Notes under the pieces: model-generated
Database searches by the model: none
The model's input: the letters and a program-made list of their open reading frames with translations, nothing else
Told to the model about the DNA's origin: nothing
In this document: positions 1 to 20,800 of the stretch, piece by piece
Position numbering within the stretch: position 1 is the first letter of the stretch
Layout of the letters: each line of letters begins with the position of its first letter
DNA from: a virus
Taxonomy: Duplodnaviria; Caudoviricetes
DNA length: 28,224 bases
Direction: 5' to 3' (one strand)
Virus record (IMG/VR): IMGVR_UViG_3300020438_000208
Location: 1 to 28,224 of that record
Made by a program: the position numbers and the translations under genes

Positions 1-123
1 CTGCTGCGAATAACATCGTAGCATTCTCACGTCCAGTAAGCCCAGTTCGCACCCGTGAACTCGTCCTTGCTTGACCCAAAGGTGAGATGGGGGTTAAGTT
101 AGCCTTCTAACCCAAGTAACTCA
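1..123 (+). ncRNA. ssrA: tmRNA (ssrA), 3' part of the coding piece of a circularly permuted cyanobacterial-type gene; 5' part lies outside the window
   Basis: Frame 3-74 reads AANNIVAFSRPVSPVRTRELVLA-TGA, matching the ANNIV.F.R start of cyanobacterial tmRNA tags. It is followed by a pseudoknot (GGGTTA 91-96/TAACCC 108-113 and AGTTA 97-101/TAACT 117-121) and then directly a terminator. No T-arm/CCA end is present, as expected for the two-piece permuted gene of marine Synechococcus/Prochlorococcus. Confidence 0.8.
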
Positions 124-124
124 T

Positions 125-149
125 GAGGGGTGAAATGCCCCTCTTTTTT
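125..149 (+). terminator. Rho-independent terminator after the tmRNA
   Basis: GAGGGG (125-130) pairs with CCCCTC (138-143), followed by TTTTTT (144-149). Confidence 0.9.
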
Positions 150-211: not shown

Positions 212-219
212 TATAAATA
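212..219 (+). promoter_or_regulatory. T4-type late promoter (gp55-dependent)
   Basis: Exact TATAAATA in the intergenic region 35 nt before the ATG at 255; AGGA at 243-246 is a possible RBS. Confidence 0.85.
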
Positions 220-254: not shown

Positions 255-3200
255 ATGGCTTTGACAAGACTTGACAATCTTATTAGTTCAAAAACTGGTA
301 AGTATTTGTATGTGTCTCCTGACGATTTCAACGCATCGGATGAGCTGAACAACAGGGGAAATTCCCCAATTAGACCATTTAAGTCTATTCAAAGAGCATT
401 TATAGAGATCGCACGATACTCTTACTTACCTGGAAGAGATAACGACAGGTACGATCAATTCACCATCATGTTGATGCCTGGTAAGCATTACATTGATAAC
501 CGTCCAGGATTAATAGACTCTAGTGGTATTGATGCCTTCCAGTTTGATCAAGCATTAAGTGAATGGACTGATAGTTCATCATTAGATATATCTGATCCAA
601 ATAACATACTTTATAAGTTTAACAACACCGAGGGTGGTGCTATTATCCCTCGTGGTTCGTCTTTAGTTGGTTACGATTTACGTAGAACTACTGTTCATCC
701 TCTTTATGTTCCTGATCCTGCTGATATGTTGGAGAAGCGTTCTGCTATCTTCAATGTAACTGGTGGTTGTTACTTCTGGCAGTTTACTATAAGGGATGGT
801 GATTTAGAACCTTCTTCACCATTGTATGATACTAATGATGGTATAGGTAAAGTTTATAATCAGACTCCTCCTGCTGGTAGTCCTGGTACTGCATGGACAC
901 AGTTAGAAATTCCTAACTTCTCTCACCATAAACTAACTGTATTTGAATATGCAGCTAAGGAAGAGTTAGGTATCTACTATCAGAAAGTTGCCAAGGCATT
1001 CTCTCAGTATCAACCAACGATTGATGATGCTGGTGAGTTTGGTGATAGAATTCAAGAGACAAGAATTGTTGGACCTCTATCAGATCTTCGTTCTATTGAA
1101 TCTATTAAGTGTACTGATCTTACTGGATTGAATGCAGGACAGATTGAAGTTGAAGTAACTACTAAAGTACAGCATGGTTATTTCAAGAGTCAGTTTATTG
1201 CTATTGAGAACAATGGTCTTGATGAAGAATTAAATGGTACTTTCTCCATTAATGAAATTTCTGATTCTGATCTAAGAGTATTTACATATAGAATATCAGG
1301 AACTGTTGCTGCTTTAGGATCTACTACTAATCTTGTTAGTGGTGTATCTTATTCTGCTGCTAATGGATTGGATGGAAATGCCGTAGTTAAAGCAGAGGTT
1401 GACTCTGTTGAATCTGCATCTCCATACGTATTCAACTGTTCTATCAGATCTACATGGGGTATTTGTGGTATATGGGCAAATGGTTTGAAAGCCACTGGTT
1501 TCAAATCAATGGTTATCGCTCAGTATACTGGTGTATCACTCCAAAAGGATGACAGAGCATTCATCAGATATGATGAGTATACCAATACATTTAATCAAGC
1601 ATCTCTAACAGATGCATTTGCAACAGTACCTTACCACACTAAGGGTGATGCATTCTGGAAGGATGACTGGAGAAACTTCCACGTTCGTGCATCAGATGAT
1701 TCATTCATTCAGTGTGTTAGTATCTTCGCTGTTGGTTTTGCTGATCACTTCCTAATGGAAAGTGGTGGTGATATGAGTATCACCAACTCTAACAGTAACT
1801 TTGGTAATACATCACTCCATGCTATCGGTCATAAGGGTTATTCCTTTAACCAAGATAAGGGTGGATATATTACAGACATCATTCCTCCTCAGGTTGTTTC
1901 TACTTCATCAGGAAACGTTAAGAAGAATGCTTACTATACAATAGACGTACAAGCATCTAATGATATTAATAACCACACCAAATTGTATGTTGGTGATGAC
2001 TTAGCATATGATCCTAAGAAACGTCCAGCAGCTACCATTGATGGGTATCGTATTGGTGCTAAACTAGATGATGAGATTAAAGTTAAACTTCAACCAAATG
2101 ATACTGGTTTTAATGAGTATAGTTCTACTCTAACACCAACTGGTTTTGATAAGTTTACTGTATCAGCAGAAATATTAAACCCATCAGGTTATACACCTAA
2201 TAATGCTAACCTTGATACTGCTAATAGGATTGAAGCAAATAAAGAATTCATTGCTTATGAAGCATATGGATATATCCTAGGTAAGTATCCTAATTTAAAA
2301 ATTAATGATAACATTGAGATAGTTAAGTGTCGTAGAGATATTGGTTATCTACTTGGTGCTACTATACAAGATTTAAGATTGGGTGGTAACATTAATACTA
2401 TTCAGGCTGCTGAATCTTACTATGTTCAGACTCAAGGAACCAGTGAACTTAGTTATATTACTGGGGAACTAACAGAAACATTAGAAGCATATGATTATGC
2501 TAGAGATCTAGCAATTGCTGCATCTCGTAACTTTGTGTATCTACGTCAAGGTTGTGAAACAGTTGCAACTTCTTCATTAGTTAATGTTGGTGACACAAGT
2601 GGTATCGTTCAAGGTATGACTGTTGCTGACTATGCACCTAGTGAGTTTGATGATTCACAAGGCAATTACAAAGGACAGTTAAAAGAAAATGCTACACGTC
2701 CTAACTCACCTGTTATTCCAGACAATACATTTGTTAAGCGTGTTGTTGACTCAGCAACTATTGAACTTGGAGTTAAGAATTTAACTGGAGAGAAGAAAGT
2801 ATTCTCTAATCGTCATGGTGATGCTGCTAATTTAATTGAAGCAAACAGAGCATTCATTGCTGCTGAAGCATTTGATAGGATGTCTACGTTTGATTTTCCT
2901 GGATATACATCACCTACAGGATATACATCACAAGATTGTCTTGATGACATTTCTGATGCATTGAAAGCAATTGAACAGAACATAGCATTTGGTGGTAATG
3001 CAGAGACATGGGATGCTGCATACCATTATGATAGTGGTGCTGTTGCATACTTAGATGCTAAGAAAGACGAAACTATACGTTGCTTTGAATATGCCAAGGA
3101 CATGGCAATTCAGGTAATGCGTAAGGAAGATGTATTTGTTTTTGGTAGTCATGGGTTAACTCAAGTTAAGACCACTGCACAACTCAACTCTTCTAATACT

Positions 3201-6200
3201 GCTATTGCAGATGCAAGTGATCCTATTACTAATGTAGCACCAGACCCAGTTAATGATAAAGCTGGTGATGCACGTAATTTAATCCTTGCTAACGCAGATC
3301 TTATTGCACATGAGTCTGTTGAAAGAATGCTTCTTCAGTCTTCTACAGAGAAGTTTACTCCAACTGCTGCTGCTTACAACCCTGCTAGTGGTGATTTAAC
3401 ACTGACTATTAATAGTCATGGACTTACAGGAGCAACAACTTTATCAGCATCTGATGCTGACTATACTGCAAGCACAGGTGTTCTTACAATTACATCTAAT
3501 GGTCACAGCATGGTTGAGGGTGAAAGAGTTCACATCACTGATGGATCTCTTACATTTACATGTGGTATGGATAGTAATACTACCACACATGCATACCCAA
3601 GAGCAACTGACCCTGTGTCTGGTAAATGGTTAGAGATTTCTAATGTAACTACCAATACATTTGATGTTCATGTTGGTGATTCACCTATAGTATCATTTAC
3701 TCCTACTGCTGCTGATTACAATCCAACAACAGGAGTTATGGAACTTACTGTTGGTGCTCATGGATTGACTGCTGGTACAAATATTAAGATTGCTCAGGAT
3801 TCATTAACATTTACTTGTGATCAAGATAGTAATGCAACAAATCATACTTATCCAAGAGCAACAGACCCAATCATTAATGGTGTTGCTATTCAGTCTGTAA
3901 CTGCTAATACAATTACAGTTCAGGTCTTAGCATCTGCACCTTCTACAAATGTCACAAACCATACATTTGTTAGTTCTTCTGCTAACTCAGTTGTAACTGG
4001 TGGTGATTATGTACACCAATTCTCAACTGCAACTGCTAGTGGTATTAAGAGAGAGAATGATGCTATTAGAATTGATTACAATGCTTTAACATTCACTTGT
4101 GGAATGGATGGTAATGGTAGTCAGCATACTTATCCTCGTGTAAGTGATCCTGCTGGTGGTGCATTACTTGCTGTTGGAGATACAACTGCTAACACAGTTA
4201 CAGTTAATGTAGGTAAGTCAGTAGAGAAGACTTATGACGTTGGTGATGCTACGTACAATCATACAACTGGTGATCTAACTCTAAGTATAAGCAACCATAA
4301 ACTATTAAAAGGACAGAGTATTAGATTAGCTGATAATTCTATCACATTTACATGTGGACAGGATGCTAATGCTACTAATCATTCTTATCCACGTTCAACT
4401 GATCCAGCATATCAGACAGCGTTACCAATTACATCTGTTGGTTCATCAAATCATACAGCAACTGGTGCTACATATGAACCTTCAAATGGTGTTCTAGAAT
4501 TAACTGTAGCAAATCATGGTTTTACAAACGGAGATCGCATAAAAATTTCTGAGGGTTCTTTGACCTTCACATGTTCGTTTGATAATAATCTTACAGAACA
4601 TGCATATCCAAGACTTAGTGATCCTAAGAATGATAAGTGGTTAACTGTATCAGATGCAACTGTTAATACTTTCAAAGTTAATGTTGATGCAGCAGGTGCT
4701 GATCAACAGTATACTCCAACAGATGCTGCATATGATCCTGCAACTGGTGATCTAACTCTTACTATTGGATCTCATGCATTATCACAGGGTGATGGTATTA
4801 CTATTGATAATGATTCATTGTCATTCACATGTACAATGGATGGTAATCAAGTTGCTCAGACATATCCACGTGCAGGTAAAGATCAGGCATCAGGAAGATC
4901 TCTTCCTATTAAATCTATAACTGGTACATCAGTTACAGTTAATGTAGGTGTGGCAGGTGATGATAAGTATTTCCAACCTACTGCTGGAACATATAATGCT
5001 GCTACTGGTGAGATGGTTCTTACTGTAGGACAGCATGGATTTGCAGTTGGTTCTGACATTACTCTTAAAGATAATTCTCTTACATTTAGTTGTGATAAAG
5101 ATGGTAATGCAACCAATCATTCCTATCCTCGTCCTGGTACTGACCCCTATGCTGGTAAGTCTATATCTGTAACAGCAGTTGGTTCCACATCACATACTGC
5201 TACTGGTGCTGTATATACTCCTACAACAGGAGCATTGTTACTTTCAATTGCTAATCATGGATTCTCTAATGGAGACTACATTCAGATTGCTGATGACTCA
5301 CTCACATTTACATGTGAATTAGATGGTGATACCGCACAGAAATCATACCCTCGTACTGGATTTGATTATCCAAGTGGAAGATGGTTGAAGATTTCTAATG
5401 TTGTTGCCAATGCTTTTGAAGTTAACGTTGGTATTTCTTCTGATACATCCAACCATTCATTTGTTTCAGCAACTGCTAGTGGCATTACAAGACAAGATGG
5501 AACATTTACAATCAATGTAGGTTTTGATGCTGATGCTAACAATCAGTATGCACATACATTTGTTAGTGCTCTTGCTGATGCTGTTGAGTATGAACCACAG
5601 TCTTTACATACATTTGTAAGTGCTGGTGCTAACTCAGTAAAACATCTTCCTCAATCTGCACATACATTCAAGAGGGGTGCTACTGGTGGAATACTTAAGC
5701 AAGGTGGAACCATTACAGTTAATGTTAATGTAGGTGCATCTGGTCAACAGTATCCACATACATTTGTGAGTGCTACTAGTGGTGCTGTAATATCTGGTGG
5801 ACAATATCCACACACATTTGTATCTGCTGTAACTGATTCAATTCATAAGATATTCTATGTTGGTGGAACTAATCCTGCTTCTAAGATCTATCATAGTAAA
5901 GACTGTGTTGATGATGTTGTAGATGTATTGAAAGCTGTTGCAGATAACGTAGCATACGGTGGTAACGATAAGACATGGGATGCTGCTTATTCATACAAGA
6001 CTGGTAATCATGTTGTTGGTGAAGAATCTGAGACTAATGTAGTCTTTGATTATGCTAAAGAGTTGGCTGCTCTAGTCAGCAGAAATCAGAAGATCCTTAC
6101 AATTGGATCTCATGGTTTGACTCAGAGTATCAACAGTCAAATTACAACTGACTTTGCTCAAACTGCTGATAATAAGGGTGGTGATGCGTACAATTTGATT

Positions 6201-9200
6201 CAATCTAATAAAGAATTTATTGCAGAAGAAGCATACGAAAGAATGATTCTTAACAATGCTGGATTCTTACCACCAACAGGTAATCCACAGGATTGTATTG
6301 ATGATATTGCTGATTTTGTTAATGAAGTATCATACAACGTAGGATTTGGTGGTAACGATAGAACTTGGGACATGGCAAATCTGTATGTAACAGGTGCTCA
6401 TGTTGCTGGTGAAGAAGAACAGACACTTGCTGCATTCAAGGATGCTACTGAGATAATGATTCAGGTGATGAGAAATGAAAAGGTTCTCGTTATTGGTTCT
6501 CATGGTGGCACACAAACATATGATAATAGTATTACATCGTATGTTGCTAATCCAATTAACAATAAGGTAGCTGATGCAAGAGATTTGATAATTTCCAATA
6601 AAAATTTCGTGGCAGAAATTGCTCTTGGAAGGATGATTGCACAGTATCCTTCATACACATGGCAGACTGGTTATAGTTCTACTGATTGTCTTGATGATCT
6701 TAAGGATGTAGTAGATGTTGTAGCACATAACTTAGCATACGGTGGTAATGATCGTGTATGGGATGCTGCTAACATGTATGTTGCTGGTGCTCATGCTGCT
6801 GGATCAGAGAATGAAACAATCTATGCATTCAATCAGGTTCGTGACCTTATAAGACAGGTCATGACAAATGAGGCAGTTACAGTTGGTGGTCATACATCAC
6901 TAGCACAAGCAACTGATACCTCTATTACTGATGGTGTTACTAATGGTGATTGTGATGCTCCAAAAGCAACTGTTACTTCTTTAGTACAGATTCTTACTAA
7001 TACTATCAGTACACCTTCTTCACTACTCAGTGTTACACGTACAGGTGCTACTTACAAGTGTCCTACTGTAGAGTCTGCAATTAATACATTATCTGACATT
7101 GTTACTAATGCTATATCAACACCTGAGAGTCTTGCTCCAATAGCTAGAGTTAGGTCTGCTGGTAAGTGTGAGGATGTAAGAAATTCTATTGATACGTTGT
7201 TTACTATCATTCAGAATACTATTACTACACCAACTTCACTTAATAGTATCACAAGAAGTTCTTCTAATGGTTCTTGTCAGAATGTAGCGTCTACTATTAG
7301 TACTCTGTTTGGTATTCTTACAACAACTATTAATGATGTTACATCAGCTAACCCAACAGGTTATCTTAATAGTATAGAGAGAAAAACATCACCAGAGGGA
7401 ATTTCTTTCGGTGCATCAGTTAATCCTAATACAACAACTACAAATAGTTACCTCTGGTTTACTTTACCAGCAGGTATATACGCTGATCCTACTCTATTCA
7501 CACCATCTACTGATACTTCAATTACTATTGATGCAGGTTATCCACAGTGTAATAGTCAGTCTGATGCTGTTCGTCAGTTCTTTGCTAACATCAAGACTAT
7601 TATTCAGAATGGTTTGAATAGTGTTCCTAGAGCACAGGCTGCTAGTGTTGGTGCTCTTTCAAATAGAGCAACACTATGGAAGATTGCTGGAACTAACCCA
7701 CATGGTTTAGAAACTGGTACTGCTGTACGTCTTGTTCCAAGACCTAAAGCTGGTTTTGATGTTGATAAGCGTAAGGTAAGACTACCGAATGGTTTTGAAA
7801 CTAACGAGAAATATTATATCATAGCATCTGGTAGAGATACATTGCCAGAAAATTACTCTGGTGTGTCACAATTTGATGGTACTGAGAACTCTCAAGTATA
7901 CTTCATGTTGGCAAGCAGTATAGAGAATGCTGCTGCTGGTATCTATCTACACTCTGCTGAAGTAGAGGCAATAGATCCTTATGTAGAAATTGATGTTTAT
8001 CAATTCATACTTGATGATAAGTATGATCTACACCAGTATGGTTGTAAGATGGATGGTGTAGTTCCTTCTGGTATTCGCACAGATATTCCTAACATCTTTG
8101 ACGTTCCTCATTCAAATACAGGATCACCTGCTAAGCCACCTACATCACATAAGGTATTCTTTAGAGAAGATACAGATAACATCAAGAAGTTACCTTCAGT
8201 TTCTGGTACGTATGCTCTTGACCCTGCTGTTACATTCCAAAGTGGATCTAAGCAAGGTAAGATTAGGGATGATAAGTTCTTCTATGTAAGATATGAGAAT
8301 GCTAAGGTATTTACAGTCTATAAGACAGCAGACTTAGCAGTACAAGGTCAGATTAAAATTGACTTTGCACCTGATAGTGGTAATACTTATGGGTTCTTTG
8401 TGTTTGCTGATAAGCGTCAGTCTCCAATGAGATTTGATCCATCATTTGATAATCCAAATGCAACTGAGATGGGTAAGTGGTACTTAAATGTTAAACCTAA
8501 CTCAGATGGAGCTAACACCAATACATCTATGGAGATATTGGCTAGACTTCATACTCAGGCATACAATCAGAACTCTGGACAAGATAAGACTAATGATACT
8601 TTCTTTGAAAGAATTACTGATGACAGAGAAGCTGATGAGCGTATCTATCGCTTCCGTTATGTTATTCCTAAGTATCTTAAGTCTGTTCGTGATCCTCTAA
8701 ACGGATTTACCATTAAGGTACGTAAGGATGAGACTAGAAAACTATTACCACAGAAGATAGTACTTAAACCTATTACTGGAACAGCAGTAGCACAGTTTGC
8801 TAACCCTAATCAATCTAATGAGAAAATTGGATTTACTCAAGCAGATTTTGATGACACAACTAATAATGTCAACGAAGATAATCAGTATGATCCATACAGA
8901 AAGGTTCTAGATAGTGATCCTGTTGGGTCTACATTTATTAAGAGAGTTGCTACTACCAATTATATTGGAATGACAGTTCAGTCTGGTAATTACTTTACTG
9001 AACAATCTAGTGGTGATACTCTTCTTGAGTTGACAGTATTTGATCCTAGCATTGATAATGCTGCACTTGCTAATGAAAAACTAACAACAGTTAAGATTAC
9101 TGCACCTGAGGGTGGTAGTACTGCTACTGGATTTACTTTCAGTAAGGATATTAAGCAAGATGATAATACACAACCTACATTTAATAAGGTTGTTTGGAAT

Positions 9201-12200
9201 GCACCTCATGCTACTGGATATGCTTATATTCATGCTGTTTGTGAAGTTCCTGGCACTCCATCTGAGTGGCATTTAATTCTTAAGGGTGTTGTTAATACAA
9301 CAGGTAAACTTTTGTTCTCTGAATCTGATAACATTAGATTTGAGCAGGGTACAGTTTATGCAGACCTTAAGAGTGATCCTGACGGTGGCAAATCGCTTGA
9401 TACAAAAGATCTAATCGCAAAAAATTTGCCCCAGTATTATTACAAGCAATTAGCTGCATCTGTTTATACAGTAACACCTGGTGATATTATTCCAGATGAT
9501 ACTGGTAATCAATACCGTATTATATCTGTAGAAGATGTTGGTGAAATTGATGACACATTCTATATCTTTAATGTTCAGGAAATTAAGAAACGTATTTTTG
9601 AGCAACAAGAAGGTGTATACTATATCACTGCTGTTCGTGGTAACCATTCACCATTCCCAACAGGTGCTGGTAACCAAGGCAACTTTAGAAACTTTAAGTT
9701 CTCTCAACCAATTAGTAAGTTATATCCTCTTAACTATAAGAATGACCCTCTTTGGTATCAGCATCCTAAGTTAGAACCTGCTGCAATTGATCCACCTGCA
9801 ACATATTCTGCTGCTGATAACTATGTTCATGGTTTAGTTAAGGTTAATGACTTTAAGGGATCAATGACCAAGGAAGCAGTTGTTGATTTTACAAACACAT
9901 CAGCACTGGTAAATTACAGTTATACAGGAACTAATTCTCTTAAAGCACAGACAGGTAATGCTTCGTCTGGTTCAGAAGATCGTTTAATTCCTATTACTGG
10001 TGATAATACAGTTCTATCACGACAGAAACTATATGTTGAACTTAGACGACCATCTATTGCTCGTGCTGGTAACCATACGTTTGAATACCTTGGTTTTGGT
10101 CCAGGTAACTACTCAACTGGTCTACCTGCTAGACAGGAAGTTGTTCTTACTACAACTCAAGACTTCTATGCTCAGTCTAAGAAGCAAGATGGTGGTTTAG
10201 TATTCTACACTGGTCTTAACAGTAATGGTGACCTATACATTGGTAACCGTAAGATTGATGCTATCACTGGTGAGGAAGTATTCCTAGAAAGAGCAGCATT
10301 AGTTGATTCTGAGGATGATGGGGAAGATTTAGGAAGTCTTGTTACAACCTTTGATACTCCTGTAACATTCAATAAGAATATCACAGTCAATGGTGGTGAT
10401 GATCAGAACATGGTCAATAGGTTTAATTCTCCTGTTGAAGTTAATGTTCTTGGAACTATAGGCAAGGATGCTTTAATCATACAATCAAATGTAAGTACCA
10501 ATGCTGCTGATAATGAAGATCAATCACTTGATAGAACTTCTCAGTTCCTTAATAGTGATACTAAGGGTGATGTAGTAATATCTAAGAATAGGATTGCTGC
10601 TTCTGTATTCCAGTTTAACCCACGTGGTTCAAATGGTGCTGCTCAAGGATATAGAATTCAGAATCATGTTGTTGGATTACTTGGGTCTAACGTAACACCA
10701 AATCAGACTGCATTGTTTGTCAATGGTGGTACTGCATTATATCCAGAACAGAATGTATCCTATAGTTTTGCTGGAGCACCTCTAACTGGAGATATGCTTC
10801 TTAAGGGTGAGGAAGTAGGTAAGTCTGGATCACTTGGTTGGATATATGCTAATTACTATGCAGATATCGCTAATGCAAGTGTATACTCTCTACAACCTGA
10901 ATCAACTACTGTTGCTGGTAGAAAGATTAGAATAGATTGGAATGGATTAACTAACCAATCTATTGGTCTTACTAGTGGTTCTCAAATTAGAATCAGTGGA
11001 ATGCTTGATAATGTATTCAATGATACATTTAATATCATACCATCAACGTTTAATAAAAACAACACATATGTTGAATTTAATCTTGATATTGGAAATGAAA
11101 GAAGTGACATATCAGGTGATAATGTAAGATTGTGGTCAACAGAGGTATCATTAAATAATCCTTCACTATTGATGGAATATTCTAACTCTTCATGGAAGGA
11201 GTTTGGAGTTATTGGTGCTGAAGCTATTAGATCTAATGTAGATTTCATTGGTGAATATAAGGTTGGTATTAACACAGTTGCACGTGCTGAACATCAATCT
11301 GCTAAGAATGCATGGACTGAATTGGCAACAGAACCACGTGCTAACTTGGATGTTGTTGGTACAGCATTTATTAGTGGTAAGACATTTGATAATACTAATT
11401 GGTTAACAAATAGTGTATTAGGAAATAGAACTGAATCTTCTGTAGATAATGCATTCTTAGTTGGTGGTGATAGTAGACCAGGAGTTGATGCTAACAATGT
11501 TCCTTTACAGGATAATGAAGCAACTCTAAGAGTTTCTACTACTAACGGTGGTCGTGTTGGTATCAATGTAACCAATACACAATTAAATGGTTCTGCTGAT
11601 AGTGGAGTATACAATGCAGCACTTGCTGTAGATGGTAGTGGATTCATTAGTCAGAACTTACGTGTAGAGAATGATCTAGCAGTTAATGGTGGAGGCGGTG
11701 GTAACATTGCTAACCTAACAACTCTTATTACTACTGGTACATTTGAGTTTGTTAATGATACCGCATTCAAGGGTATTGCAGCAACTACTAGTGTTGCAGG
11801 TAGTAATGGATTGAAGATGGCAGGTTATCTCCATAATATTGAGATAGGTAATGCCACAACAGATATACAAGACATCAAGATTGGTAATACTAGTGCATCA
11901 AGTACCGTTACTCTTGGTGCTACACCTGATGGAAATATTCCTTCAGGATTTACTAACAGTACTGACATTTCGTTAGTTACTATTGGTGGTGCTTATAATA
12001 GTCTTGAGTCTAGTTCTGAAACTAGAATTGGTACTAAGAGCTTTAAGATTTATGGTGATGTTTGGTTAGGTTGGAGAAGAACTCCTACTGATGCTTCTCA
12101 GACCGTTGACTTTAAATCTAAAGCTACAGTAGTTAACTTCCTTTCTAACTCTGGTGGTCCTTCAACACTTAACTTTGCTACTAAGGCATCTGACGTTAAT

Positions 12201-15035
12201 ATTGCTGGTCAAGGTGGTACAACAACCATTAATAACTCTCTAGAGGTAGCAGCATCTGCTAAGTTTAATTCAAATGTTCATCTATGTGGTGGTAATTCTT
12301 CTGGATATTATGTTGGTGGTAGAGGTCAATTAGGAACTACTATTCAATATCATAACGTTCCTGTTGATCCACTCAATCCAGATAAGAATGTTGACCTTGT
12401 TAATGTATTGGTTACAGGTGTTAATGATCCTGGTTATAACCAGATTAACACTGCTGGTTTCAACTATTGGGGTAGTAACTTCTTCCGTCTTGCTAAGACT
12501 CAAGTTGGTGGTAGTCCAGTGGTTGCACCACAGGATCTTCCTGAGATACCAGTATCAGAAAATGCATTCTATATGCCATTATTGAATTCTCCTGCTGGAT
12601 ATTATACTGTTGGAGATTATATTTTAATTAACAGTCCAATAGTTACTAATGGTCATCCTGAGATAGTTGAAGTTGTTGAGTTAACTAGACCAACTGTTGC
12701 TCCTTACTATATTAAAGTTAAGAGACAACCACTAGGAACATTCACTGCTGCGATTGATACTCATCCAGACTTTACACTACTTTATAAGTGTGAGGTGCAG
12801 TTTAATTCTACTTGGACAACACAAGCAATTGATAATACTGGACCACAAGATGATGTATATCTTGCAGAATTTGGTGGATCATTAGATACTAATGATTATA
12901 TCATTATCGGACGTGATGCTCAAGGAACAATTGGTGAATTTGTTAAAATTGTTGAGATTAAGGATGAAGTAGCACAGACACTTAAAGTTAGTGACTGTGG
13001 TAATCCTGACAAGACAGTATTTGAAGTTAATTCTGTAACAGGAGACACATATATTGGTGGTAAACTTACTATTGATAATTCTGTATCTTTGAGTGGTGGA
13101 TGTGGATCAACAGTAAGACAATTTGGTGATCCTGCTACTAATCAGTTTGTTGGTGATATAATTGCTCCTACTGGTAGTGTTAATGCTACTGGTATTAGTG
13201 GAATTCTTACTGACGATATTGCTAACCTTGAGGTAGGCGATATCATTAAATTAAAATCATATAATGTAGATCAAGTACCTGTAATACCAGTAAACACAAG
13301 AATTACTGAAATTGATACTGATTCTATCACACTTAGTAATGGAATAGGTGCATTATCTGCTATTAATGATGCTGCCTTCTCTGCTTCTAGGAATGAAGAA
13401 GTAACGATTACTAATGGTGCTAGTCAAAACTCATTCTATCTTGATACTTGTACTGCTACTCTAGAAATAGGTAGTCAGCATAGAAGAATTCAGATAGCAA
13501 GATCTCTTCCTGATGTACAAGCATCAGCTGATACAGAAACTGCATTTAGGTCTGTTAAAGAACATATAAGAGCATATTCTTATTGGTTAGATCCAAAGGT
13601 TCTCCAATCTACAGGACCAATTACAGCGTTGTCTGCTAATGCAACTACAGGTACTGTTCCTGGTTCAGTTTATATCCCAGTAGCAAGTCTTGGTGTATCT
13701 GATGGTGCGTTTGTTGCTGGTGATATAGTATTGGTTGGTAATGCTGCTCACATTTCTGGTAGAGGATTAACTGCTGGTGAACAAACGTTTGAGATAATGC
13801 TCATTCAGTCTATTGACGAAGTTAATAAAGTTCTTAGATGTCTTCCTGGTCAAGAGGGAACAACAGAACTTGCTTTAACCAACTATACAGCAGGTAGTAA
13901 CATTACCGTAATGAGGATACTGAAGCATCCTGAAAGTTCTGCTGTATATGATATTCAATCTAGATCAAGAACTATATCTGGTGTGGTTACACCATATGTT
14001 TCTCTTATCTTGGAGAAGGGATATATTGTACAGACTAAACTAGATTATGCTAACTGGGTAAGATTCCATGACACTAGAGAAACTGGTACATTTGATGATC
14101 AGTTCTTCTATGTTGGTGACAGTATAAACAGCACAATCAATAAAGGTTGTCTGTTTGGAAATGTTCATCAGGATGACATGAACGAGTTCACTCATGCTGG
14201 TGTGGTTCCACATCAAACTGGTGATCTTACGGTCAACAAAGACCTTACAATGATTGGTGGTGACATTACTGTTTATGATTCTGTTAAAAAGACAAAATTA
14301 TTTGCGTTCAGAAATGATGATGGTCATGCTGATCACGCAGCAAATATAGACTTTGAAGCTGGTGTCATTGGTAGAGGTACTATTACTCTTTACTCCACAT
14401 CTTGTCCAGAGAACGTAGCAGCAAGTGGATGTGATCCATCATTCTCTGTTGACGTGTTTAGTAATGTTATTGCTGGTAGTACATTTACTATTAGAGGTGA
14501 AGCAGTTCAAGCACCACCTAAGACACCTAAGTTAACTGTTGATAATCTAGGAGTTAGTGGTGCTAATAAGTATGTTATTAACCAAGATCAATCAATTGAT
14601 GCATTTGGTATTAATAACTTTACAACTAAATCTGGTGGTCGTCATGCTAGATATATTGCTACTGGTGCTGACGAGAGTGATAAATATTTAACAGCGAACA
14701 TACAGTACTTTGCTAATATTGCAGTAGGTGATACATTCGTTGTTTACTTACCTGATAATCCTAATAGTGGAGATGAAGTTAGTGTGATTGACGTTGGTGG
14801 TAATCTAACATACAATACATCACTTGTTGTTAGAGCACAGGGTACAGGAACAAGAGTTCAAGGAGATGCAAGTGGAACGAGTTTGGGTATTGAAGGAACT
14901 ACTACATGGGGTTCTGGTGAATTAGTTGTACAAACACCTAACGCTGCATTTACTTTAGTGTATCTTGGAGGAGTTGATTCAGATAATAATGTTGTTGGTG
15001 GGTCTGTTACTGGTTGGTGGCTCAAGGAGGTTTAA
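255..15035 (+). CDS. Giant virion structural protein / fibre (4926 aa) with beta-helix-like N-terminal region and nested repeat arrays
   Basis: Uninterrupted ORF behind a late promoter. The N-terminus (MALTRLDNL...LYVSPDDFNASD...GNSPIRPFKSIQRA) and the HTFEYLGFGPGNYSTGLP block resemble large cyanomyovirus structural proteins. The C-terminal LPDNPNSGDEVSVIDVGGN...LVY...GWWLKEV resembles the small beta domains of T4 gp34/gp9-like proteins. Exact role on the virion is not determinable here. Confidence 0.85.
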   Translation: MALTRLDNLISSKTGKYLYVSPDDFNASDELNNRGNSPIRPFKSIQRAFIEIARYSYLPGRDNDRYDQFTIMLMPGKHYIDNRPGLIDSSGIDAFQFDQALSEWTDSSSLDISDPNNILYKFNNTEGGAIIPRGSSLVGYDLRRTTVHPLYVPDPADMLEKRSAIFNVTGGCYFWQFTIRDGDLEPSSPLYDTNDGIGKVYNQTPPAGSPGTAWTQLEIPNFSHHKLTVFEYAAKEELGIYYQKVAKAFSQYQPTIDDAGEFGDRIQETRIVGPLSDLRSIESIKCTDLTGLNAGQIEVEVTTKVQHGYFKSQFIAIENNGLDEELNGTFSINEISDSDLRVFTYRISGTVAALGSTTNLVSGVSYSAANGLDGNAVVKAEVDSVESASPYVFNCSIRSTWGICGIWANGLKATGFKSMVIAQYTGVSLQKDDRAFIRYDEYTNTFNQASLTDAFATVPYHTKGDAFWKDDWRNFHVRASDDSFIQCVSIFAVGFADHFLMESGGDMSITNSNSNFGNTSLHAIGHKGYSFNQDKGGYITDIIPPQVVSTSSGNVKKNAYYTIDVQASNDINNHTKLYVGDDLAYDPKKRPAATIDGYRIGAKLDDEIKVKLQPNDTGFNEYSSTLTPTGFDKFTVSAEILNPSGYTPNNANLDTANRIEANKEFIAYEAYGYILGKYPNLKINDNIEIVKCRRDIGYLLGATIQDLRLGGNINTIQAAESYYVQTQGTSELSYITGELTETLEAYDYARDLAIAASRNFVYLRQGCETVATSSLVNVGDTSGIVQGMTVADYAPSEFDDSQGNYKGQLKENATRPNSPVIPDNTFVKRVVDSATIELGVKNLTGEKKVFSNRHGDAANLIEANRAFIAAEAFDRMSTFDFPGYTSPTGYTSQDCLDDISDALKAIEQNIAFGGNAETWDAAYHYDSGAVAYLDAKKDETIRCFEYAKDMAIQVMRKEDVFVFGSHGLTQVKTTAQLNSSNTAIADASDPITNVAPDPVNDKAGDARNLILANADLIAHESVERMLLQSSTEKFTPTAAAYNPASGDLTLTINSHGLTGATTLSASDADYTASTGVLTITSNGHSMVEGERVHITDGSLTFTCGMDSNTTTHAYPRATDPVSGKWLEISNVTTNTFDVHVGDSPIVSFTPTAADYNPTTGVMELTVGAHGLTAGTNIKIAQDSLTFTCDQDSNATNHTYPRATDPIINGVAIQSVTANTITVQVLASAPSTNVTNHTFVSSSANSVVTGGDYVHQFSTATASGIKRENDAIRIDYNALTFTCGMDGNGSQHTYPRVSDPAGGALLAVGDTTANTVTVNVGKSVEKTYDVGDATYNHTTGDLTLSISNHKLLKGQSIRLADNSITFTCGQDANATNHSYPRSTDPAYQTALPITSVGSSNHTATGATYEPSNGVLELTVANHGFTNGDRIKISEGSLTFTCSFDNNLTEHAYPRLSDPKNDKWLTVSDATVNTFKVNVDAAGADQQYTPTDAAYDPATGDLTLTIGSHALSQGDGITIDNDSLSFTCTMDGNQVAQTYPRAGKDQASGRSLPIKSITGTSVTVNVGVAGDDKYFQPTAGTYNAATGEMVLTVGQHGFAVGSDITLKDNSLTFSCDKDGNATNHSYPRPGTDPYAGKSISVTAVGSTSHTATGAVYTPTTGALLLSIANHGFSNGDYIQIADDSLTFTCELDGDTAQKSYPRTGFDYPSGRWLKISNVVANAFEVNVGISSDTSNHSFVSATASGITRQDGTFTINVGFDADANNQYAHTFVSALADAVEYEPQSLHTFVSAGANSVKHLPQSAHTFKRGATGGILKQGGTITVNVNVGASGQQYPHTFVSATSGAVISGGQYPHTFVSAVTDSIHKIFYVGGTNPASKIYHSKDCVDDVVDVLKAVADNVAYGGNDKTWDAAYSYKTGNHVVGEESETNVVFDYAKELAALVSRNQKILTIGSHGLTQSINSQITTDFAQTADNKGGDAYNLIQSNKEFIAEEAYERMILNNAGFLPPTGNPQDCIDDIADFVNEVSYNVGFGGNDRTWDMANLYVTGAHVAGEEEQTLAAFKDATEIMIQVMRNEKVLVIGSHGGTQTYDNSITSYVANPINNKVADARDLIISNKNFVAEIALGRMIAQYPSYTWQTGYSSTDCLDDLKDVVDVVAHNLAYGGNDRVWDAANMYVAGAHAAGSENETIYAFNQVRDLIRQVMTNEAVTVGGHTSLAQATDTSITDGVTNGDCDAPKATVTSLVQILTNTISTPSSLLSVTRTGATYKCPTVESAINTLSDIVTNAISTPESLAPIARVRSAGKCEDVRNSIDTLFTIIQNTITTPTSLNSITRSSSNGSCQNVASTISTLFGILTTTINDVTSANPTGYLNSIERKTSPEGISFGASVNPNTTTTNSYLWFTLPAGIYADPTLFTPSTDTSITIDAGYPQCNSQSDAVRQFFANIKTIIQNGLNSVPRAQAASVGALSNRATLWKIAGTNPHGLETGTAVRLVPRPKAGFDVDKRKVRLPNGFETNEKYYIIASGRDTLPENYSGVSQFDGTENSQVYFMLASSIENAAAGIYLHSAEVEAIDPYVEIDVYQFILDDKYDLHQYGCKMDGVVPSGIRTDIPNIFDVPHSNTGSPAKPPTSHKVFFREDTDNIKKLPSVSGTYALDPAVTFQSGSKQGKIRDDKFFYVRYENAKVFTVYKTADLAVQGQIKIDFAPDSGNTYGFFVFADKRQSPMRFDPSFDNPNATEMGKWYLNVKPNSDGANTNTSMEILARLHTQAYNQNSGQDKTNDTFFERITDDREADERIYRFRYVIPKYLKSVRDPLNGFTIKVRKDETRKLLPQKIVLKPITGTAVAQFANPNQSNEKIGFTQADFDDTTNNVNEDNQYDPYRKVLDSDPVGSTFIKRVATTNYIGMTVQSGNYFTEQSSGDTLLELTVFDPSIDNAALANEKLTTVKITAPEGGSTATGFTFSKDIKQDDNTQPTFNKVVWNAPHATGYAYIHAVCEVPGTPSEWHLILKGVVNTTGKLLFSESDNIRFEQGTVYADLKSDPDGGKSLDTKDLIAKNLPQYYYKQLAASVYTVTPGDIIPDDTGNQYRIISVEDVGEIDDTFYIFNVQEIKKRIFEQQEGVYYITAVRGNHSPFPTGAGNQGNFRNFKFSQPISKLYPLNYKNDPLWYQHPKLEPAAIDPPATYSAADNYVHGLVKVNDFKGSMTKEAVVDFTNTSALVNYSYTGTNSLKAQTGNASSGSEDRLIPITGDNTVLSRQKLYVELRRPSIARAGNHTFEYLGFGPGNYSTGLPARQEVVLTTTQDFYAQSKKQDGGLVFYTGLNSNGDLYIGNRKIDAITGEEVFLERAALVDSEDDGEDLGSLVTTFDTPVTFNKNITVNGGDDQNMVNRFNSPVEVNVLGTIGKDALIIQSNVSTNAADNEDQSLDRTSQFLNSDTKGDVVISKNRIAASVFQFNPRGSNGAAQGYRIQNHVVGLLGSNVTPNQTALFVNGGTALYPEQNVSYSFAGAPLTGDMLLKGEEVGKSGSLGWIYANYYADIANASVYSLQPESTTVAGRKIRIDWNGLTNQSIGLTSGSQIRISGMLDNVFNDTFNIIPSTFNKNNTYVEFNLDIGNERSDISGDNVRLWSTEVSLNNPSLLMEYSNSSWKEFGVIGAEAIRSNVDFIGEYKVGINTVARAEHQSAKNAWTELATEPRANLDVVGTAFISGKTFDNTNWLTNSVLGNRTESSVDNAFLVGGDSRPGVDANNVPLQDNEATLRVSTTNGGRVGINVTNTQLNGSADSGVYNAALAVDGSGFISQNLRVENDLAVNGGGGGNIANLTTLITTGTFEFVNDTAFKGIAATTSVAGSNGLKMAGYLHNIEIGNATTDIQDIKIGNTSASSTVTLGATPDGNIPSGFTNSTDISLVTIGGAYNSLESSSETRIGTKSFKIYGDVWLGWRRTPTDASQTVDFKSKATVVNFLSNSGGPSTLNFATKASDVNIAGQGGTTTINNSLEVAASAKFNSNVHLCGGNSSGYYVGGRGQLGTTIQYHNVPVDPLNPDKNVDLVNVLVTGVNDPGYNQINTAGFNYWGSNFFRLAKTQVGGSPVVAPQDLPEIPVSENAFYMPLLNSPAGYYTVGDYILINSPIVTNGHPEIVEVVELTRPTVAPYYIKVKRQPLGTFTAAIDTHPDFTLLYKCEVQFNSTWTTQAIDNTGPQDDVYLAEFGGSLDTNDYIIIGRDAQGTIGEFVKIVEIKDEVAQTLKVSDCGNPDKTVFEVNSVTGDTYIGGKLTIDNSVSLSGGCGSTVRQFGDPATNQFVGDIIAPTGSVNATGISGILTDDIANLEVGDIIKLKSYNVDQVPVIPVNTRITEIDTDSITLSNGIGALSAINDAAFSASRNEEVTITNGASQNSFYLDTCTATLEIGSQHRRIQIARSLPDVQASADTETAFRSVKEHIRAYSYWLDPKVLQSTGPITALSANATTGTVPGSVYIPVASLGVSDGAFVAGDIVLVGNAAHISGRGLTAGEQTFEIMLIQSIDEVNKVLRCLPGQEGTTELALTNYTAGSNITVMRILKHPESSAVYDIQSRSRTISGVVTPYVSLILEKGYIVQTKLDYANWVRFHDTRETGTFDDQFFYVGDSINSTINKGCLFGNVHQDDMNEFTHAGVVPHQTGDLTVNKDLTMIGGDITVYDSVKKTKLFAFRNDDGHADHAANIDFEAGVIGRGTITLYSTSCPENVAASGCDPSFSVDVFSNVIAGSTFTIRGEAVQAPPKTPKLTVDNLGVSGANKYVINQDQSIDAFGINNFTTKSGGRHARYIATGADESDKYLTANIQYFANIAVGDTFVVYLPDNPNSGDEVSVIDVGGNLTYNTSLVVRAQGTGTRVQGDASGTSLGIEGTTTWGSGELVVQTPNAAFTLVYLGGVDSDNNVVGGSVTGWWLKEV
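2202..7631 (+). repeat. Five helical repeat units (DA.NLI..N..FIA.EA...C.DD...GGN..TWDAA..Y) with five displaced closing helices
   Basis: Unit bodies start at ~2202, 2811, 3255, 6171 and 6561. Cys-led amphipathic closing helices have Cys codons at 6951, 7059, 7167, 7275 and 7548. Confidence 0.85.
3354..5849 (+). repeat. Eight ~100-aa beta-rich repeat units (Y.P.TG.L.LT...HG...G..I.I...SLTFTC..D....H.YPR..DP...TVNVG...HTFVSA)
   Basis: The translation shows eight F[TS]C..D/YPR cores and eight H.F closing strands. The array interrupts the third helical repeat between ERMLLQSS and DCVDD. Confidence 0.9.
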
Positions 15036-16463: not shown

Positions 16464-17851
16464 TGGCAGTATTCTATAATAAACAAAAAGGAATACATGG
16501 ATCATTAACTGGTACTATTATATCTTTTCCAGTTGAAGTTAACACAGAAGATCCAGCACAGTCTGTTGCTAGAGCAAAACTACCAGCAGGGTATATGAGG
16601 TGTGATGGTAGAGTTTTAACTAATGAAGACTATCCAATGTTAGCAGTTGTATTGGGTACAGGTGAAACATCTAAATTTAAAAAAACATCTCAAACATTAT
16701 CGGATGATCAATTCCAACTACCAGATTTAAGAAGTAAACATATTAGAGCAACTACATCATCCAACATTGGTACTTTTAATGATCTTACTGTAACAGATTC
16801 TGCTGGCAATGAGCAAGTAAAATCTGGTGTTCAATTAGATGTATTGTTGAATGTTGATACTCCATTTACATTGAATTATAATGGATCATTTTATATTCCA
16901 CCTCAAACACAGGAATTAAGAGGAGAACCATCCTTTGCTGTTGAGACAGGTTCATATACATTCTATGCTGAAGTTCCTGCAAATGGATTTCAACCACATA
17001 TGCATAGAACTAATACTCAAAGAGCAAGACAAGTAGATGCAGGTGGAAATCATTTTAGTTCTAGACAAATAAACTCAGTTAGAACCAAAAGTACATTGAA
17101 TGTATGTAAGTGGTGGGAGTATGCTAAACAGGATTTATGTTACTGGTATTATACTGGTGTTGTAGCACCTGGATCAGGTGGTAGGAATGTGGAACCTACT
17201 TCATATGAAGATCAATACGGTGCGTGTTGGAATTCTTGTTCTAATTTTATTCAACAAGGATTGTGTTTATGGCCAGACAGTACAACATGTGATAATGTTC
17301 CTATAGATAGGTGGCATGTACGTGCTGGAAATAATGGTTGTAATCATGGTAACGTTCCACCTTTTCCTGGATATGGTGATACAACATGGGGTGCTGTAAC
17401 ATATCCTCGTACTTATACACACTCATGTGTTTGTACTTCTCCTATTCAAATTTTTGGATGTCCTGGTGGTATTAATGGTTCAACCATAGAAGATGTTAAG
17501 AATGGTCCTGGAAATGATGGATGGACTACACTGGAAGCAGGACTACCAACTGATCTACAAGGTGATATAAATTTACCAATGGCTCCATTGGATGATGCTT
17601 ATCAAGTTGGTTATGCTGCTGTTAGTAATGTTCATAGTTTAACAGGTGAGTGGGGAAATGATGGTAATCACAGACATAGATTAGACTTCAATTCTGATAT
17701 TGCCCATACTTTTGTTATGAATACAAGAGCATCTACTGCTAGAGCAGATGCTGGTCTTGTGTCTAAAATCACTTTAGCAACAAACGATGCTCCAAAAGCA
17801 GATAAATATATACAACCATACGTTGTAACAGAGTATTTTATTAAGATCTGA
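16463..17851 (+). CDS. Tail-collar domain fibre protein with Cys-rich tip, ~462 aa
   Basis: Collar motifs TGTIISF, PAGYMRCDG, YPMLAVVLG and FQLPDLR; HxH at 16997 and 17669; C-terminal QPYVVTEYFIKI. Start placed at ATG 16463 (TAATG overlap) rather than TTG 16457. Confidence 0.85.
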   Translation: MAVFYNKQKGIHGSLTGTIISFPVEVNTEDPAQSVARAKLPAGYMRCDGRVLTNEDYPMLAVVLGTGETSKFKKTSQTLSDDQFQLPDLRSKHIRATTSSNIGTFNDLTVTDSAGNEQVKSGVQLDVLLNVDTPFTLNYNGSFYIPPQTQELRGEPSFAVETGSYTFYAEVPANGFQPHMHRTNTQRARQVDAGGNHFSSRQINSVRTKSTLNVCKWWEYAKQDLCYWYYTGVVAPGSGGRNVEPTSYEDQYGACWNSCSNFIQQGLCLWPDSTTCDNVPIDRWHVRAGNNGCNHGNVPPFPGYGDTTWGAVTYPRTYTHSCVCTSPIQIFGCPGGINGSTIEDVKNGPGNDGWTTLEAGLPTDLQGDINLPMAPLDDAYQVGYAAVSNVHSLTGEWGNDGNHRHRLDFNSDIAHTFVMNTRASTARADAGLVSKITLATNDAPKADKYIQPYVVTEYFIKI

Positions 17852-20800
17852 TGGCGACATATAAGCAAGGAAATACATTTGATACATCAGGGAATGTAAC
17901 GGGTGTCACTGAAACTCCAAACTGGTATAGCGATAAGGCAGGGTCTTATGGCACAGTTGGTGCTATCGTGCCAGTATTGGTTAACGATTATAGTGACAAT
18001 ATAGGAACAATTGAAGCACCTCATTATGCTAATAGAGGGTACTTATATTGTGATGGAACATCATATAATATTAGAGACTATCCCTTACTATATGAAATAG
18101 TTGGTAATGAGTATCTAACACCATCAGAGTTAATTGATTCAAACTCATATACTTTTACTGCTACTGGTGAATCAGGTTCTATTTTTAGAACATTTATTGA
18201 TGGTACTGACATATATGCAGAAGTATATAAGTATGAATATACACCACCAGGATCATCAACTGCTATCAAGCAACGTGCAATACCACATGAGTCAAGATTA
18301 AGGTTTGTTGGTTCTCTTGGATCTTTCCCTGCTGGTGCTACTAATATATTTGAAGCAGATAAAGATTATTATCTAGAGTATAATCCAACATATCAAAATC
18401 TTTCAACAAGACAAGATACTACAGTACATAGAATATTAGTTAACCAAGCAATATCAAATACTACGACTGTAGTAACAACGACTGTACAGGTTAATTGGAC
18501 TATCAGTTCTGGAACTCTTATTGTACCATCTGGTACAGATCAATATTATATTTTACCAATAGAATATTATGGTACTGTTCCTGAAGCTGTGCCAGGATCA
18601 ATCAATGCTCAGACTGGATTACCATACCTTAGTGGGTATACTTCATACGAACCAAACGCATTAAATTATAGTCCTGAATTTAATTGGGGTAATTTAACTG
18701 GAATGCCTGATGGTGTTGATATTGATTCTTATGAAATATATCTTCAGAATATGTCATTGCAAGATATGGTGCAATGGCATGTAACAGGTATTCCTGCTAG
18801 TGTTACGACTTTGCAAAGTAATGCTGTATTGCCAACTGGTGCAGTTATACAACCCAATACAGTATCACAATCATCTGTTCAACCACCAGCAGGTACTCCT
18901 GCTTCGTGGATTAGAGATAGTGGATACTCAGGACCACAACCAGAGGGAGGTGAGAAACATCTTTATAGATTTAATGTTATTGCTAAACTGTCAAATGGAC
19001 AGGATCTAATACAGAGTATAGATTTTACCGCAGGTAATGGTTCGTTGATACCAACGTATAGTGGTAATCCTAATTACACTAATAATCTTACCATAACTGG
19101 TGTAACTAGTAATGTAACTGATAATATTTTTAACATAGAGTGGGGTACTCTTGGTCCATATACTAAGGATGCACAAGGAAATGTAACAGGACATCCTAAG
19201 GCAAGAATTAGAAAAGCATATAGTCAAACAGATTATCCATATGTATTAGGAACATTTAGAGTACCAGATTATAGAGACAGGAAGTTAATTGGATATGGTG
19301 AAGGTGTTGAGGGTGCAGGTACTCCACTTGTAGAAGCACGTGCAACAGTAAAAGTTGGTGATATCGGTGGTAAATGGTATATACCAACCACTACAATAGA
19401 TGATCCAGCAGAGTTCTTTACTATTAGTGATGTTGTAACATCAGGTTATAGTGATATACAGACTCAAGTTCAAGCATATTTAACTGGTGAAAAGAAATTT
19501 GTTGTCGGACCTATACAAGACTATGTTTTCAATAGACCAGCAACACATGATCATCAAATTCTTCGTAGTGAAGTAGATGAGCAGAATGAAGTATCGTTAG
19601 GTGGTCTTGATAGATTCACTACTTCATATCGTAATATTAAAGGTACTGTATCAACATTCATACCAGGCACATCAGATGAGATTGCGTTAGGTCATTCTCA
19701 TGGTCTAACATCATATAGACCAACAAACTCTTCTACTGCAACCTATGGTAATATTGCTGGTATTGGTGACTACAGTGCTAGTTCTGCTGGAACTATAGGA
19801 CAAGAATCATGGACAACGCCAGGTAGTCATACATGGACTGCACCAACAGATGTTACTTCTGTTTGTGTAGTAACAGTTGGTGGTGGTGCAGGTGGTGCAG
19901 GTGGAACAAAAGGTGGTGGTGGTGCTGGTTTAGGATATACCAACAATATCACTGTCGTTCCAGGTCAGACGTATAATTTATTTGTAGGTGCTGGTGCAAC
20001 TGGTGGTGCTGCTTCTACTGGTGATCATCCAGGACAAGATAGTTATTTCATTGATAGTACCACATGCTTAGGTAAAGGTGGTGGTACATCAACTGCTGGT
20101 GATTCATCTAGTTATGGAACATTTGTTGGTGATGGTGGTGGTAATGGAGATCCATCTTCTGCTAATGGTGGTGGAGGTGGAGCTGGTGGATATGCTCTTA
20201 ACCAAGGTGGTGGTGGAGTAGGAACTGATACAGATGTCACTGGAGGTGGTGCAGGTGGTGGTGGAGTAGGTCTTAAAGGACAAGGATCTACTGGTTCTGA
20301 TGGATCCCCTAGTACACAATCCACACAAGGTGGGATAATGCAGGGTGGTAGAGGTGGATCAGGTGGTACAAATGGTGGTAATACTATTGCACCATCAGAA
20401 CAAAATGCTACTAATCCAACTGCTGCAATAGGACAACAAGCATTTACAACTGCTGGTACATTTGATTGGGTAGCACCAGCTGGTGTTACTGAGGTAGACG
20501 TAGTAGCAGTTGGTGGAGGATCAGGCGGTGGACAACAAAGTAATGGTGGTGCTGGTGGTGGACTAGGATATAAAAACTCAATATCTGTGACTCCTGGTAA
20601 TACCTACCAAGTGATAGTCGGTTCTGGTGGTGCTGGATCAGTTAATACTCTTGGTGCTGCTGGTGGAGATAGTTATTTTATTGATACTAACACAGTAAAA
20701 GGTGGAGGTGGAACAGCAAATGGTACAGGTGGTACTTATGCTGGTGCAGGTGGTGGTGTTGGTGGTGCTAAAACACAATATGGATCTGGTGGTGGTGCTG

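Follow-up and report, generated by a model that had tools for sequence, protein, structure and literature searches.

Eight mutually inserted copies of a predicted barrel domain in a tail-fibre-family protein of a probable marine cyanophage

The DNA analysed here, a stretch of 28,224 nucleotides from the Caudoviricetes record IMGVR_UViG_3300020438_000208 that we refer to as the window, encodes a giant protein in which copies of one small domain interrupt each other. We consider it highly probable that eight copies of about 104 residues sit in one another's loops as FCCH-like barrels and form a forked arm along which the chain runs out and back, which is likely to extend a cyanophage tail fibre or to serve as its adhesive branch. 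At the level of sequence, this reading is carried by the order of the motifs, by a last-in-first-out (LIFO) parse of that order and by the gain and loss of whole units among orthologs.

The gene concerned, ORF 255-15035, belongs to a run of structural genes that are all co-oriented. It matches the PHROG profile phrog_4527, 'short tail fiber protein', with E=0 and 3,663 bits, shares its N-terminus with the 'tail protein' of S-WAM2, and is followed downstream by tail-collar, Gly-rich fibre and tail-chaperone genes as detected with Pfam and PHROG profiles. Profile match and tail-gene neighbourhood thus both place it in phrog_4527, and judged from the annotation of its relatives its product probably resides in the virion tail. 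The 832-aa segment that holds the nest matched 368 phage records, all named after Synechococcus, Prochlorococcus, Cyanophage or Marine, and 15 of the 24 sequencing runs listed contained at least half of the window's words, the majority of the runs being labelled marine; RNA runs contained small shares of the window only. Because of the tail-gene context, the cyanophage-named matches, the S-WAM2 N-terminus and the marine-labelled runs, the virus is most likely a marine T4-like cyanophage. Excerpts of PMC2984593 mention cyanophage structural proteins of unknown function as well as the late promoter consensus. This consensus occurs twice in the window against 3.3 matches expected by chance, so it is only the position of the match ahead of the giant gene (Table 1) that is suggestive.

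Some further observations concern the surroundings of the nest. The 3' part of a cyanobacterial-type tmRNA is seen at window 4-141 (RF01851, E 2e-8, below the gathering score and cut by the window edge), and in four of six loci scanned with ARAGORN a permuted tmRNA lies amid the tRNAs that precede the orthologous gene. The N-terminal region (window 255-2200) resembles DUF1565/right-handed beta-helix proteins and, judged by eye, seems to contain a plain HG...G..NG.F barrel near aa 295-350. The entire helical nest described below may itself be an insert.

To describe the repeats we used five ungapped motif profiles, with seeds taken from the window and iteration over 86 homologous ORFs: A (Y.P.TG.L.LT...HG), B (I.I.D.SLTFTC), P (H.YPR..DP), C (T.NTF.VNVG) and D (H.FVSA....I). 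With thresholds close to those applied, shuffled sequence gave 1-23 matches per motif against approximately 880-1,070 in the real sequences. Each motif was found eight times in 3354-5849, the P motif of unit 6 at a low score only (6.9), and the resulting string reads [A[ABPC[ABPCD]D]BPC[ABP[ABPC[ABPC[ABP[ABPCD]CD]D]D]CD]D]. A preliminary description made from the letters of the window had cut the region into 15 segments and read them as the bracket 1(2(3))(4(5(6(7(8))))); all 15 proved to be in frame within ORF 255-15035 at the coordinates given (Table 1), and the motifs follow the order of that bracket. Only two of the eight units are continuous, so the array does not qualify as an ordinary tandem repeat of the beads-on-a-string kind, and rejoining the pieces as parsed gives units of 101, 102, 104, 105, 105, 105, 106 and 104 aa, the two intact units measuring 104 aa. 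GC and GC3 content do not differ between units.

The string can be parsed last-in-first-out, while a first-in-first-out (FIFO) parse fails. Among 4,000 shuffles of the segments 118 orders were consistent, meaning completable, and five of these 118 were LIFO. A strict stack parse gives a depth of six for the barrels and of nine once the helical hosts are included. Several details noticed in the preliminary description hold as well: three different loops of the unit serve as insertion sites in the window (A|B, P|C and C|D), and units 4 and 7 break early, at SVG and AVG before the C strand, with exactly the fourth and the first closer supplying that strand.

Table 1. Features of the window, with positions given in the numbering of the whole stretch
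Feature	Position	Strand	Basis
T4-type late promoter consensus TATAAATA	212..219	+	35 nt upstream of the ATG of ORF 255-15035
Nest-hosting T4-like cyanophage tail-fibre-family protein, 4,926 aa	255..15035	+	ORF, phrog_4527, S-WAM2 N-terminus
Openers of phycobiliprotein-like H1 (efg), H2 (efg) and H3 (first helix e)	2214..3332	+	Helical motifs; PF00502
Barrel unit 1 opener, motif A	3354..3434	+	Motif profiles
Unit 2 opener, ABPC, in A|B loop of unit 1	3435..3686	+	Motif profiles; model range 27/28-234/235 takes in closer
Unit 3, complete ABPCD, in C|D loop of unit 2	3687..3998	+	Motifs; model range 112-216
Unit 2 closer, D	3999..4052	+	Motifs and model
Unit 1 continuation, BPC	4053..4220	+	Motifs; model ranges 1-285/288
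Unit 4 opener, ABP, in C|D loop of unit 1	4221..4442	+	Motifs; model range 289/292-814/816
Unit 5 opener, ABPC, KWL type, in P|C loop of unit 4	4443..4703	+	Motifs; model range 364-783
Unit 6 opener, ABPC, in C|D loop of unit 5	4704..4964	+	Motifs; model range 448-768; 86-402 of 419-aa model
Unit 7 opener, ABP, in C|D loop of unit 6	4965..5183	+	Motifs; model range 536-748, one match, Z 5.5
Unit 8, complete ABPCD, innermost, in P|C loop of unit 7	5184..5495	+	Motifs; E1 FCCH match
Unit 7 closer, CD	5496..5594	+	Motifs and model
Unit 6 closer, D	5595..5648	+	Motifs and model (832-aa and 419-aa)
Unit 5 closer, D	5649..5702	+	Motifs, WL/GI link, model
Unit 4 closer, CD	5703..5795	+	Motifs and model
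Unit 1 closer, D	5796..5849	+	Motifs; model ranges 1-832, 1-830, 2-828 at Z 2.3-3.0 only
H3 continuation (fg), H4 opener (efg), H5 complete (efgh)	5898..7016	+	Helical motifs
Closing helices of H4, H3, H2, H1, LIFO, at 7059, 7167, 7275, 7548	7059..7613	+	Helical motifs

The assignment of each closer to its opener can be approached through motif content, linkers and sequence similarity. Motif content fixes the two CD closers, which singles out one of ten orders. In closed blocks of two units (n=43) a long entry linker is followed by a PQS exit in 20 of 21 cases and a short entry linker by a GG exit in 12 of 17, while single inserts have a GG exit in 34 of 39; linker classes that we refined after viewing these first counts gave 28/28 and 19/24 in 29 arrays. 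In the window the entry linkers, reversed, equal the exit linkers, as is the case for one of 30 distinct orders. The [KR]WL-type units 2, 5 and 8, for which a common GI.[RK]-type end had been pointed out, indeed finish in GIKR, GILK and GITR, respectively. Among 274 intact units, 33 of the 36 closers of the GI.[RK] type belong to WL units (p 6e-6), and in split units a WL opener goes with a GI.K-type closer in 7/8 cases under LIFO vs 2/8 under FIFO. On these counts the WL/GI.K link is real, yet partly a reflection of the insertion site.

The check that the preliminary description had proposed, namely to rejoin the segments and compare them with uninterrupted units, turned out less favourably. 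LIFO pairing ranked 58th of 720 for six units and 24th of 120 for five, which is weak, and over 14 arrays it came first in five and ahead of FIFO in twelve. A version based on coupling scores, with a cross-validated power of 78-82% on intact units, was negative (rank 394-575 of 720); its top couplings are located in the last D columns, which reflect the sequence after the unit. On the sequences compared, neither profile nor coupling scores of rejoined units support LIFO pairing, and profiles fail to assign closers because these are too much alike.

Structure prediction speaks to the pairing in another way. AlphaFold modelling of the 832-aa segment, closers included, returned compact barrels assembled from the split pieces as the bracket reading had them (monomer, 18 aligned sequences, pLDDT 86.8, pTM 0.54), and an AlphaFold (AF2) model of units 5-8 with three closers (419 aa, 21 aligned sequences) reached pLDDT 92.2 and pTM 0.79; the inputs were 18-21 relatives with an architecture like the window's. 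Domain composition was read from structural alignments by their first and last aligned residues only. On this basis 45 of the 50 matches listed coincide with a single LIFO unit to a tolerance of 4 residues (in 19 cases a split unit), five begin inside a neighbouring unit, and none of the 50 connects the start of one unit with the closer of another. By unit, the listed matches to the 832-aa model comprise 24 for unit 8, seven each for unit 4 with the fourth closer (289-816) and unit 5 with the third (364-783; best UBA1 FCCH, Z 7.8, 76 residues, rmsd 2.6; Z 7.8-8.1 over both models), three for unit 2 with its own closer (27-235), two for unit 3, and one each for unit 6 with the second closer (448-768) and unit 7 with the first (536-748). 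In the predicted model, units 2, 4, 5, 6 and 7 with their closers are each covered by single solved barrels at Z 5.5-7.8, and unit 1 with the last closer by three matches at Z 2.3-3.0 only. The 419-aa model agrees (aligned ranges 1-419, 86-402 and 246-350).

The best matches are an E1 FCCH domain (unit 8, Z 8.2, 77 residues, rmsd 2.6), a FCWL1 head-tail protein (Z 7.7) and endosialidase barrels (Z 7.1-7.9, rmsd about 2), and the nearest named Atlas cluster is viral E1_FCCH (0.92). The units are thus predicted to adopt an E1-FCCH/endosialidase-like fold, in the model a six-stranded closed barrel superposable on FCCH, and the middling Z of about 8 shows fold, not function. Sequence methods did not reach this fold: Pfam returned no family for the 832-aa segment at E up to 0.1, PF16190 included, and a sequence search of solved structures found no relative of the segment. 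Foldseek with the 419-aa model gave fibronectin-like low-TM noise only, which we rejected; against BFVD it matched cyanophage proteins, one with rmsd 3.6 over 320 columns, and these targets are predictions too, so that no support was counted. From the models, the interrupted barrels are predicted to be completed by their own returning strand or strands, and the chain to run out and back with a fork at unit 1, from which two arms, one of two barrels (2, 3) and one of five (4-8), would emerge through different loops.

The preliminary description had placed the six-deep barrels within an already nested helical domain, and this could be made precise: the third of five helical units hosts the beta nest. 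Four helical motifs occur five times each in the order efg[efg[e<8 barrels>fg[efg[efgh]h]h]h]h, and a strict joint parse of barrels and helices gives a depth of 9 in the window and of 10 in the related locus L017. PF00502, the phycobiliprotein family with its globin-like fold, matches the helical region with 28.6 bits against a cut-off of 22.2 (E 1.6e-6, summed over the protein), and a C..D motif is present in all five copies (window 2214-7613), as in phycobiliproteins; one helical unit searched by sequence against solved structures gave nothing better than E about 0.5. Different from phycobiliproteins, the five copies are mutually nested in a virion-type protein and their closing helices are delivered late. 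In each copy the closing helix also starts with a Cys, and the cysteines of these domains may attach a bilin or form a disulfide. The tree of barrels is accordingly predicted to hang from the third phycobiliprotein-like domain, with the helical domains as its stalk.

An apparent third nest was seen by Pfam and motif search at 19798-24003 in the next-but-two gene, ORF 17851-26763. Here Gly-rich (PF21722) openers lie at 19798, 20431, 21304 and 21952, a second, split domain begins at 21103 and continues at 23533, with an intact copy at 22648-23007 in between, and G.VR..WG closers follow at 23203, 23401, 23794 and 23980, the order being a LIFO mirror. The same tail-fibre-like protein contains, at aa 272-379 (about 18664-18990), a phosphatidylethanolamine-binding domain (PF01161) above the cut-off.

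Relatives of the barrel nest form balanced trees of other shapes. From 82 loci and the window we obtained 48 distinct interior strings with at least ten motifs each. Using all five motifs, 14 of the 48 were completable, of which 12 parse as LIFO and four as FIFO, the other two parsing with circular permutants; most of the 34 strings set aside had undetected D motifs, a permuted first unit or foreign inserts. When D was ignored, 31 of 48 were completable, all 31 as LIFO and 19 as FIFO, and in 120 further proteins six of 34 strings were completable (28 set aside), six as LIFO and one as FIFO, all of these counts being taken over related sequences and not over independent trials. In 11 pairs among eight orthologs, gaps of at least 12 aa sum to blocks of 97-108 aa that mostly hold one of each motif, and L017 and L025 lack unit 3 so cleanly that the opener of unit 2 joins a closer directly. 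The same helical loop carries between 8 and 25 units per nest among orthologs, with a branched array of 25 units, about 10 barrels deep, in L004, L006, L007, L009, L010 and L015, and divergent orthologs conserve the block of units 4-8 at 60-70%. Circularly permuted barrels, CD-ABP and D-ABPC, as well as a fourth insertion loop, B|P, occur in L064, L066, L069, L079, L054-L058 and L081. The bracket reading as a whole therefore finds support in motif order, linkers, whole-unit gaps and the AlphaFold model, the last being weak for unit 1.

Barrel nests were also noticed in other giant genes (L081 4792-26166, L077 12877-23367 and L061), and one nest-bearing giant gene lies between gp6 and gp9 of P-SSM7. 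Since nests recur in these genes, the barrel module moves between virion proteins.

That the brackets are mimicked by an ordinary degenerate tandem array or by misassembly of repeats is hardly credible to us. Repeats are prone to misassembly and our motif profiles were seeded from the window itself; against this, the units are only 33-57% identical over motif columns, every motif occurs exactly eight times, and pieces separated by as many as 500 residues come together as barrels in the model. Overlapping contigs of runs X2 and X7 cover 3000-6200 end to end with the order unchanged (of the four runs compared, X3 and X5 cover most or part of the region), and loci L001 (99%) and L002 (90%) share the window's architecture, the second closer of L002 carrying a 3-aa insertion that the profile overlooked. 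Because these independent contigs and loci keep the order, it is no assembly artefact, and both misassembly and plain tandem repeats were rejected as largely refuted. Tail fibres are often oligomers, and this would suit an arrangement in which the nesting exists in sequence while the barrels of one chain are finished by strands returning from the next, possibly in a trimer, or strands swap between barrels as in some Si3 domains. Such swapping is described for nested HABAS domains in the accessible part of PMC11515920, and the closers here are alike and poorly separated by profile scores. We nevertheless regard this as very doubtful, given that the monomer model completes its barrels in cis with high confidence and that whole-unit indels and ortholog-specific branched trees suit self-contained blocks.

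Two other proposals leave the topology unchanged and differ in what the nest is for. The inserted barrel of phage endosialidases binds polysialic acid, and its fold match to our units would fit a multivalent lectin tree whose barrels bind glycan and grip the cyanobacterial surface, the nest then not being mainly a spacer. The motifs are near-invariant (YPR; the Cys of motif B, present in 1,116 of 1,118 cases), the N-terminal region is like DUF1565/beta-helix proteins, and according to excerpts of PMC13576161 FCCH domains are single modules that face outward on siphovirus tail tubes. This remains a rather unlikely, if serious, proposal in our eyes: a Z of about 8 is middling, E1 enzymes and flavin reductases match the same barrel, a common fold gives no function, and conserved motifs may be structural. 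Depth and branching might instead be largely neutral, an insertable domain accumulating wherever folding tolerates it and only balance being selected. The spread from 8 to 25 units in one helical loop and the presence of the module in several unrelated giant genes, the gp6-gp9 interval included, agree with this; we hold it to be unlikely, as up to 2,600 extra residues are retained in intact frames and the 4-8 block stays conserved across divergent orthologs.

The closest architectural parallel to the self-inserted barrels is Si3 of cyanobacterial RNA polymerase. The portions consulted of PMC13114784, PMC11515920 and PMC10895346 describe recursive self-insertion of eight domains over six levels, so that in both cases a small beta domain sits inside its own copies, about eight in number, six levels deep and branched, with an elongated shape and continuity confined to the innermost domains. 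PMC13114784, a 2026 survey of 2.7 million domains, presents in its excerpted text the six-level polymerase nesting as a showcase of complexity. Si3, however, sits in the trigger loop of RpoC2 and has the SBHM/HABAS fold, whereas the host here is a phage tail-family protein and the best fold matches of the predicted model are FCCH-like barrels; no SBHM/HABAS chain appeared among the VIA matches listed, whose top entries are FCCH and reductase-type barrels. Furthermore, a second self-nesting family, phycobiliprotein-like, encloses the nest and brings the total depth to 9, and the architecture varies between close orthologs, whereas the polymerase insertions are described as ancient and retained (PMC11515920, in the part available). 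The nest resembles Si3 in architecture and is not a member of it.

In fold, the units share six strands with E1 FCCH (PF16190) and with phage virion barrels (endosialidase K1F/phi92, FCWL1 head-tail, N4 and lambda tail tip), 73-83 residues matching at rmsd 2-3 and Z 7-8. They differ by an extra FTC...YPR..DP subdomain of about 30 residues, by acting repeatedly as both host and insert, and by having no Pfam match in sequence. ORF 255-15035 has its family and locus in common with the giant structural proteins of T4-like cyanophages (phrog_4527, 5342, 701, 18802), whose annotations, among those examined, read structural, tail fibre or baseplate only and do not include a nested build. The literature searched, with most subscription papers and supplements outside it, yielded no publication that treats domain nesting in the virion proteins of phages, and the terms FCCH, nested, globin and phycobil are absent from PMC7824862. 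This architecture is of a known but rare kind, met mainly in cyanobacterial RNA polymerase, and is deeper than the published showcase if both domain families are counted.

Because the circular permutants D-ABPC and CD-ABP exist, the two ends of the barrel would lie side by side, and any closed block could then fit into a loop. If recombination took place between the first and last motifs that units share, closed blocks would be exchanged for closed blocks, while unbalanced recombinants would leave a strand unpaired and be purged by selection. In this way the phage could vary reach and valency by single domains with the host chain undisturbed. The part of our reading of which we are least sure is a role for the arm in host attachment, through longer reach or additional binding valency. 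We lean slightly towards a wider interpretation, in which cyanomyophage fibres are built by a general and still active 'bracket grammar': at least three unrelated families in the window (the FCCH-like barrel, the phycobiliprotein-like helix bundle and the Gly-rich domain) would insert recursively into themselves and each other and so form branched out-and-back trees that exceed the six levels published as the extreme, with a depth of 9 here and about 13 in the L004 group, and recombination of closed blocks would tune reach, valency and host range.

In one phage protein the nesting reaches six levels by barrels alone and nine with the helical hosts, and close relatives are set apart by entire units. 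How recursive insertion proceeds, a question that PMC11515920 regards as unclear in the part at hand, hereby becomes observable in extant populations. The nest might further serve as a natural scaffold for branched protein rods and as a model for the folding of a domain whose last strand comes up to 800 residues late. For the cyanophages themselves, it would provide a structural reading of their giant unannotated fibre genes and explain why linear domain scans fail on them.
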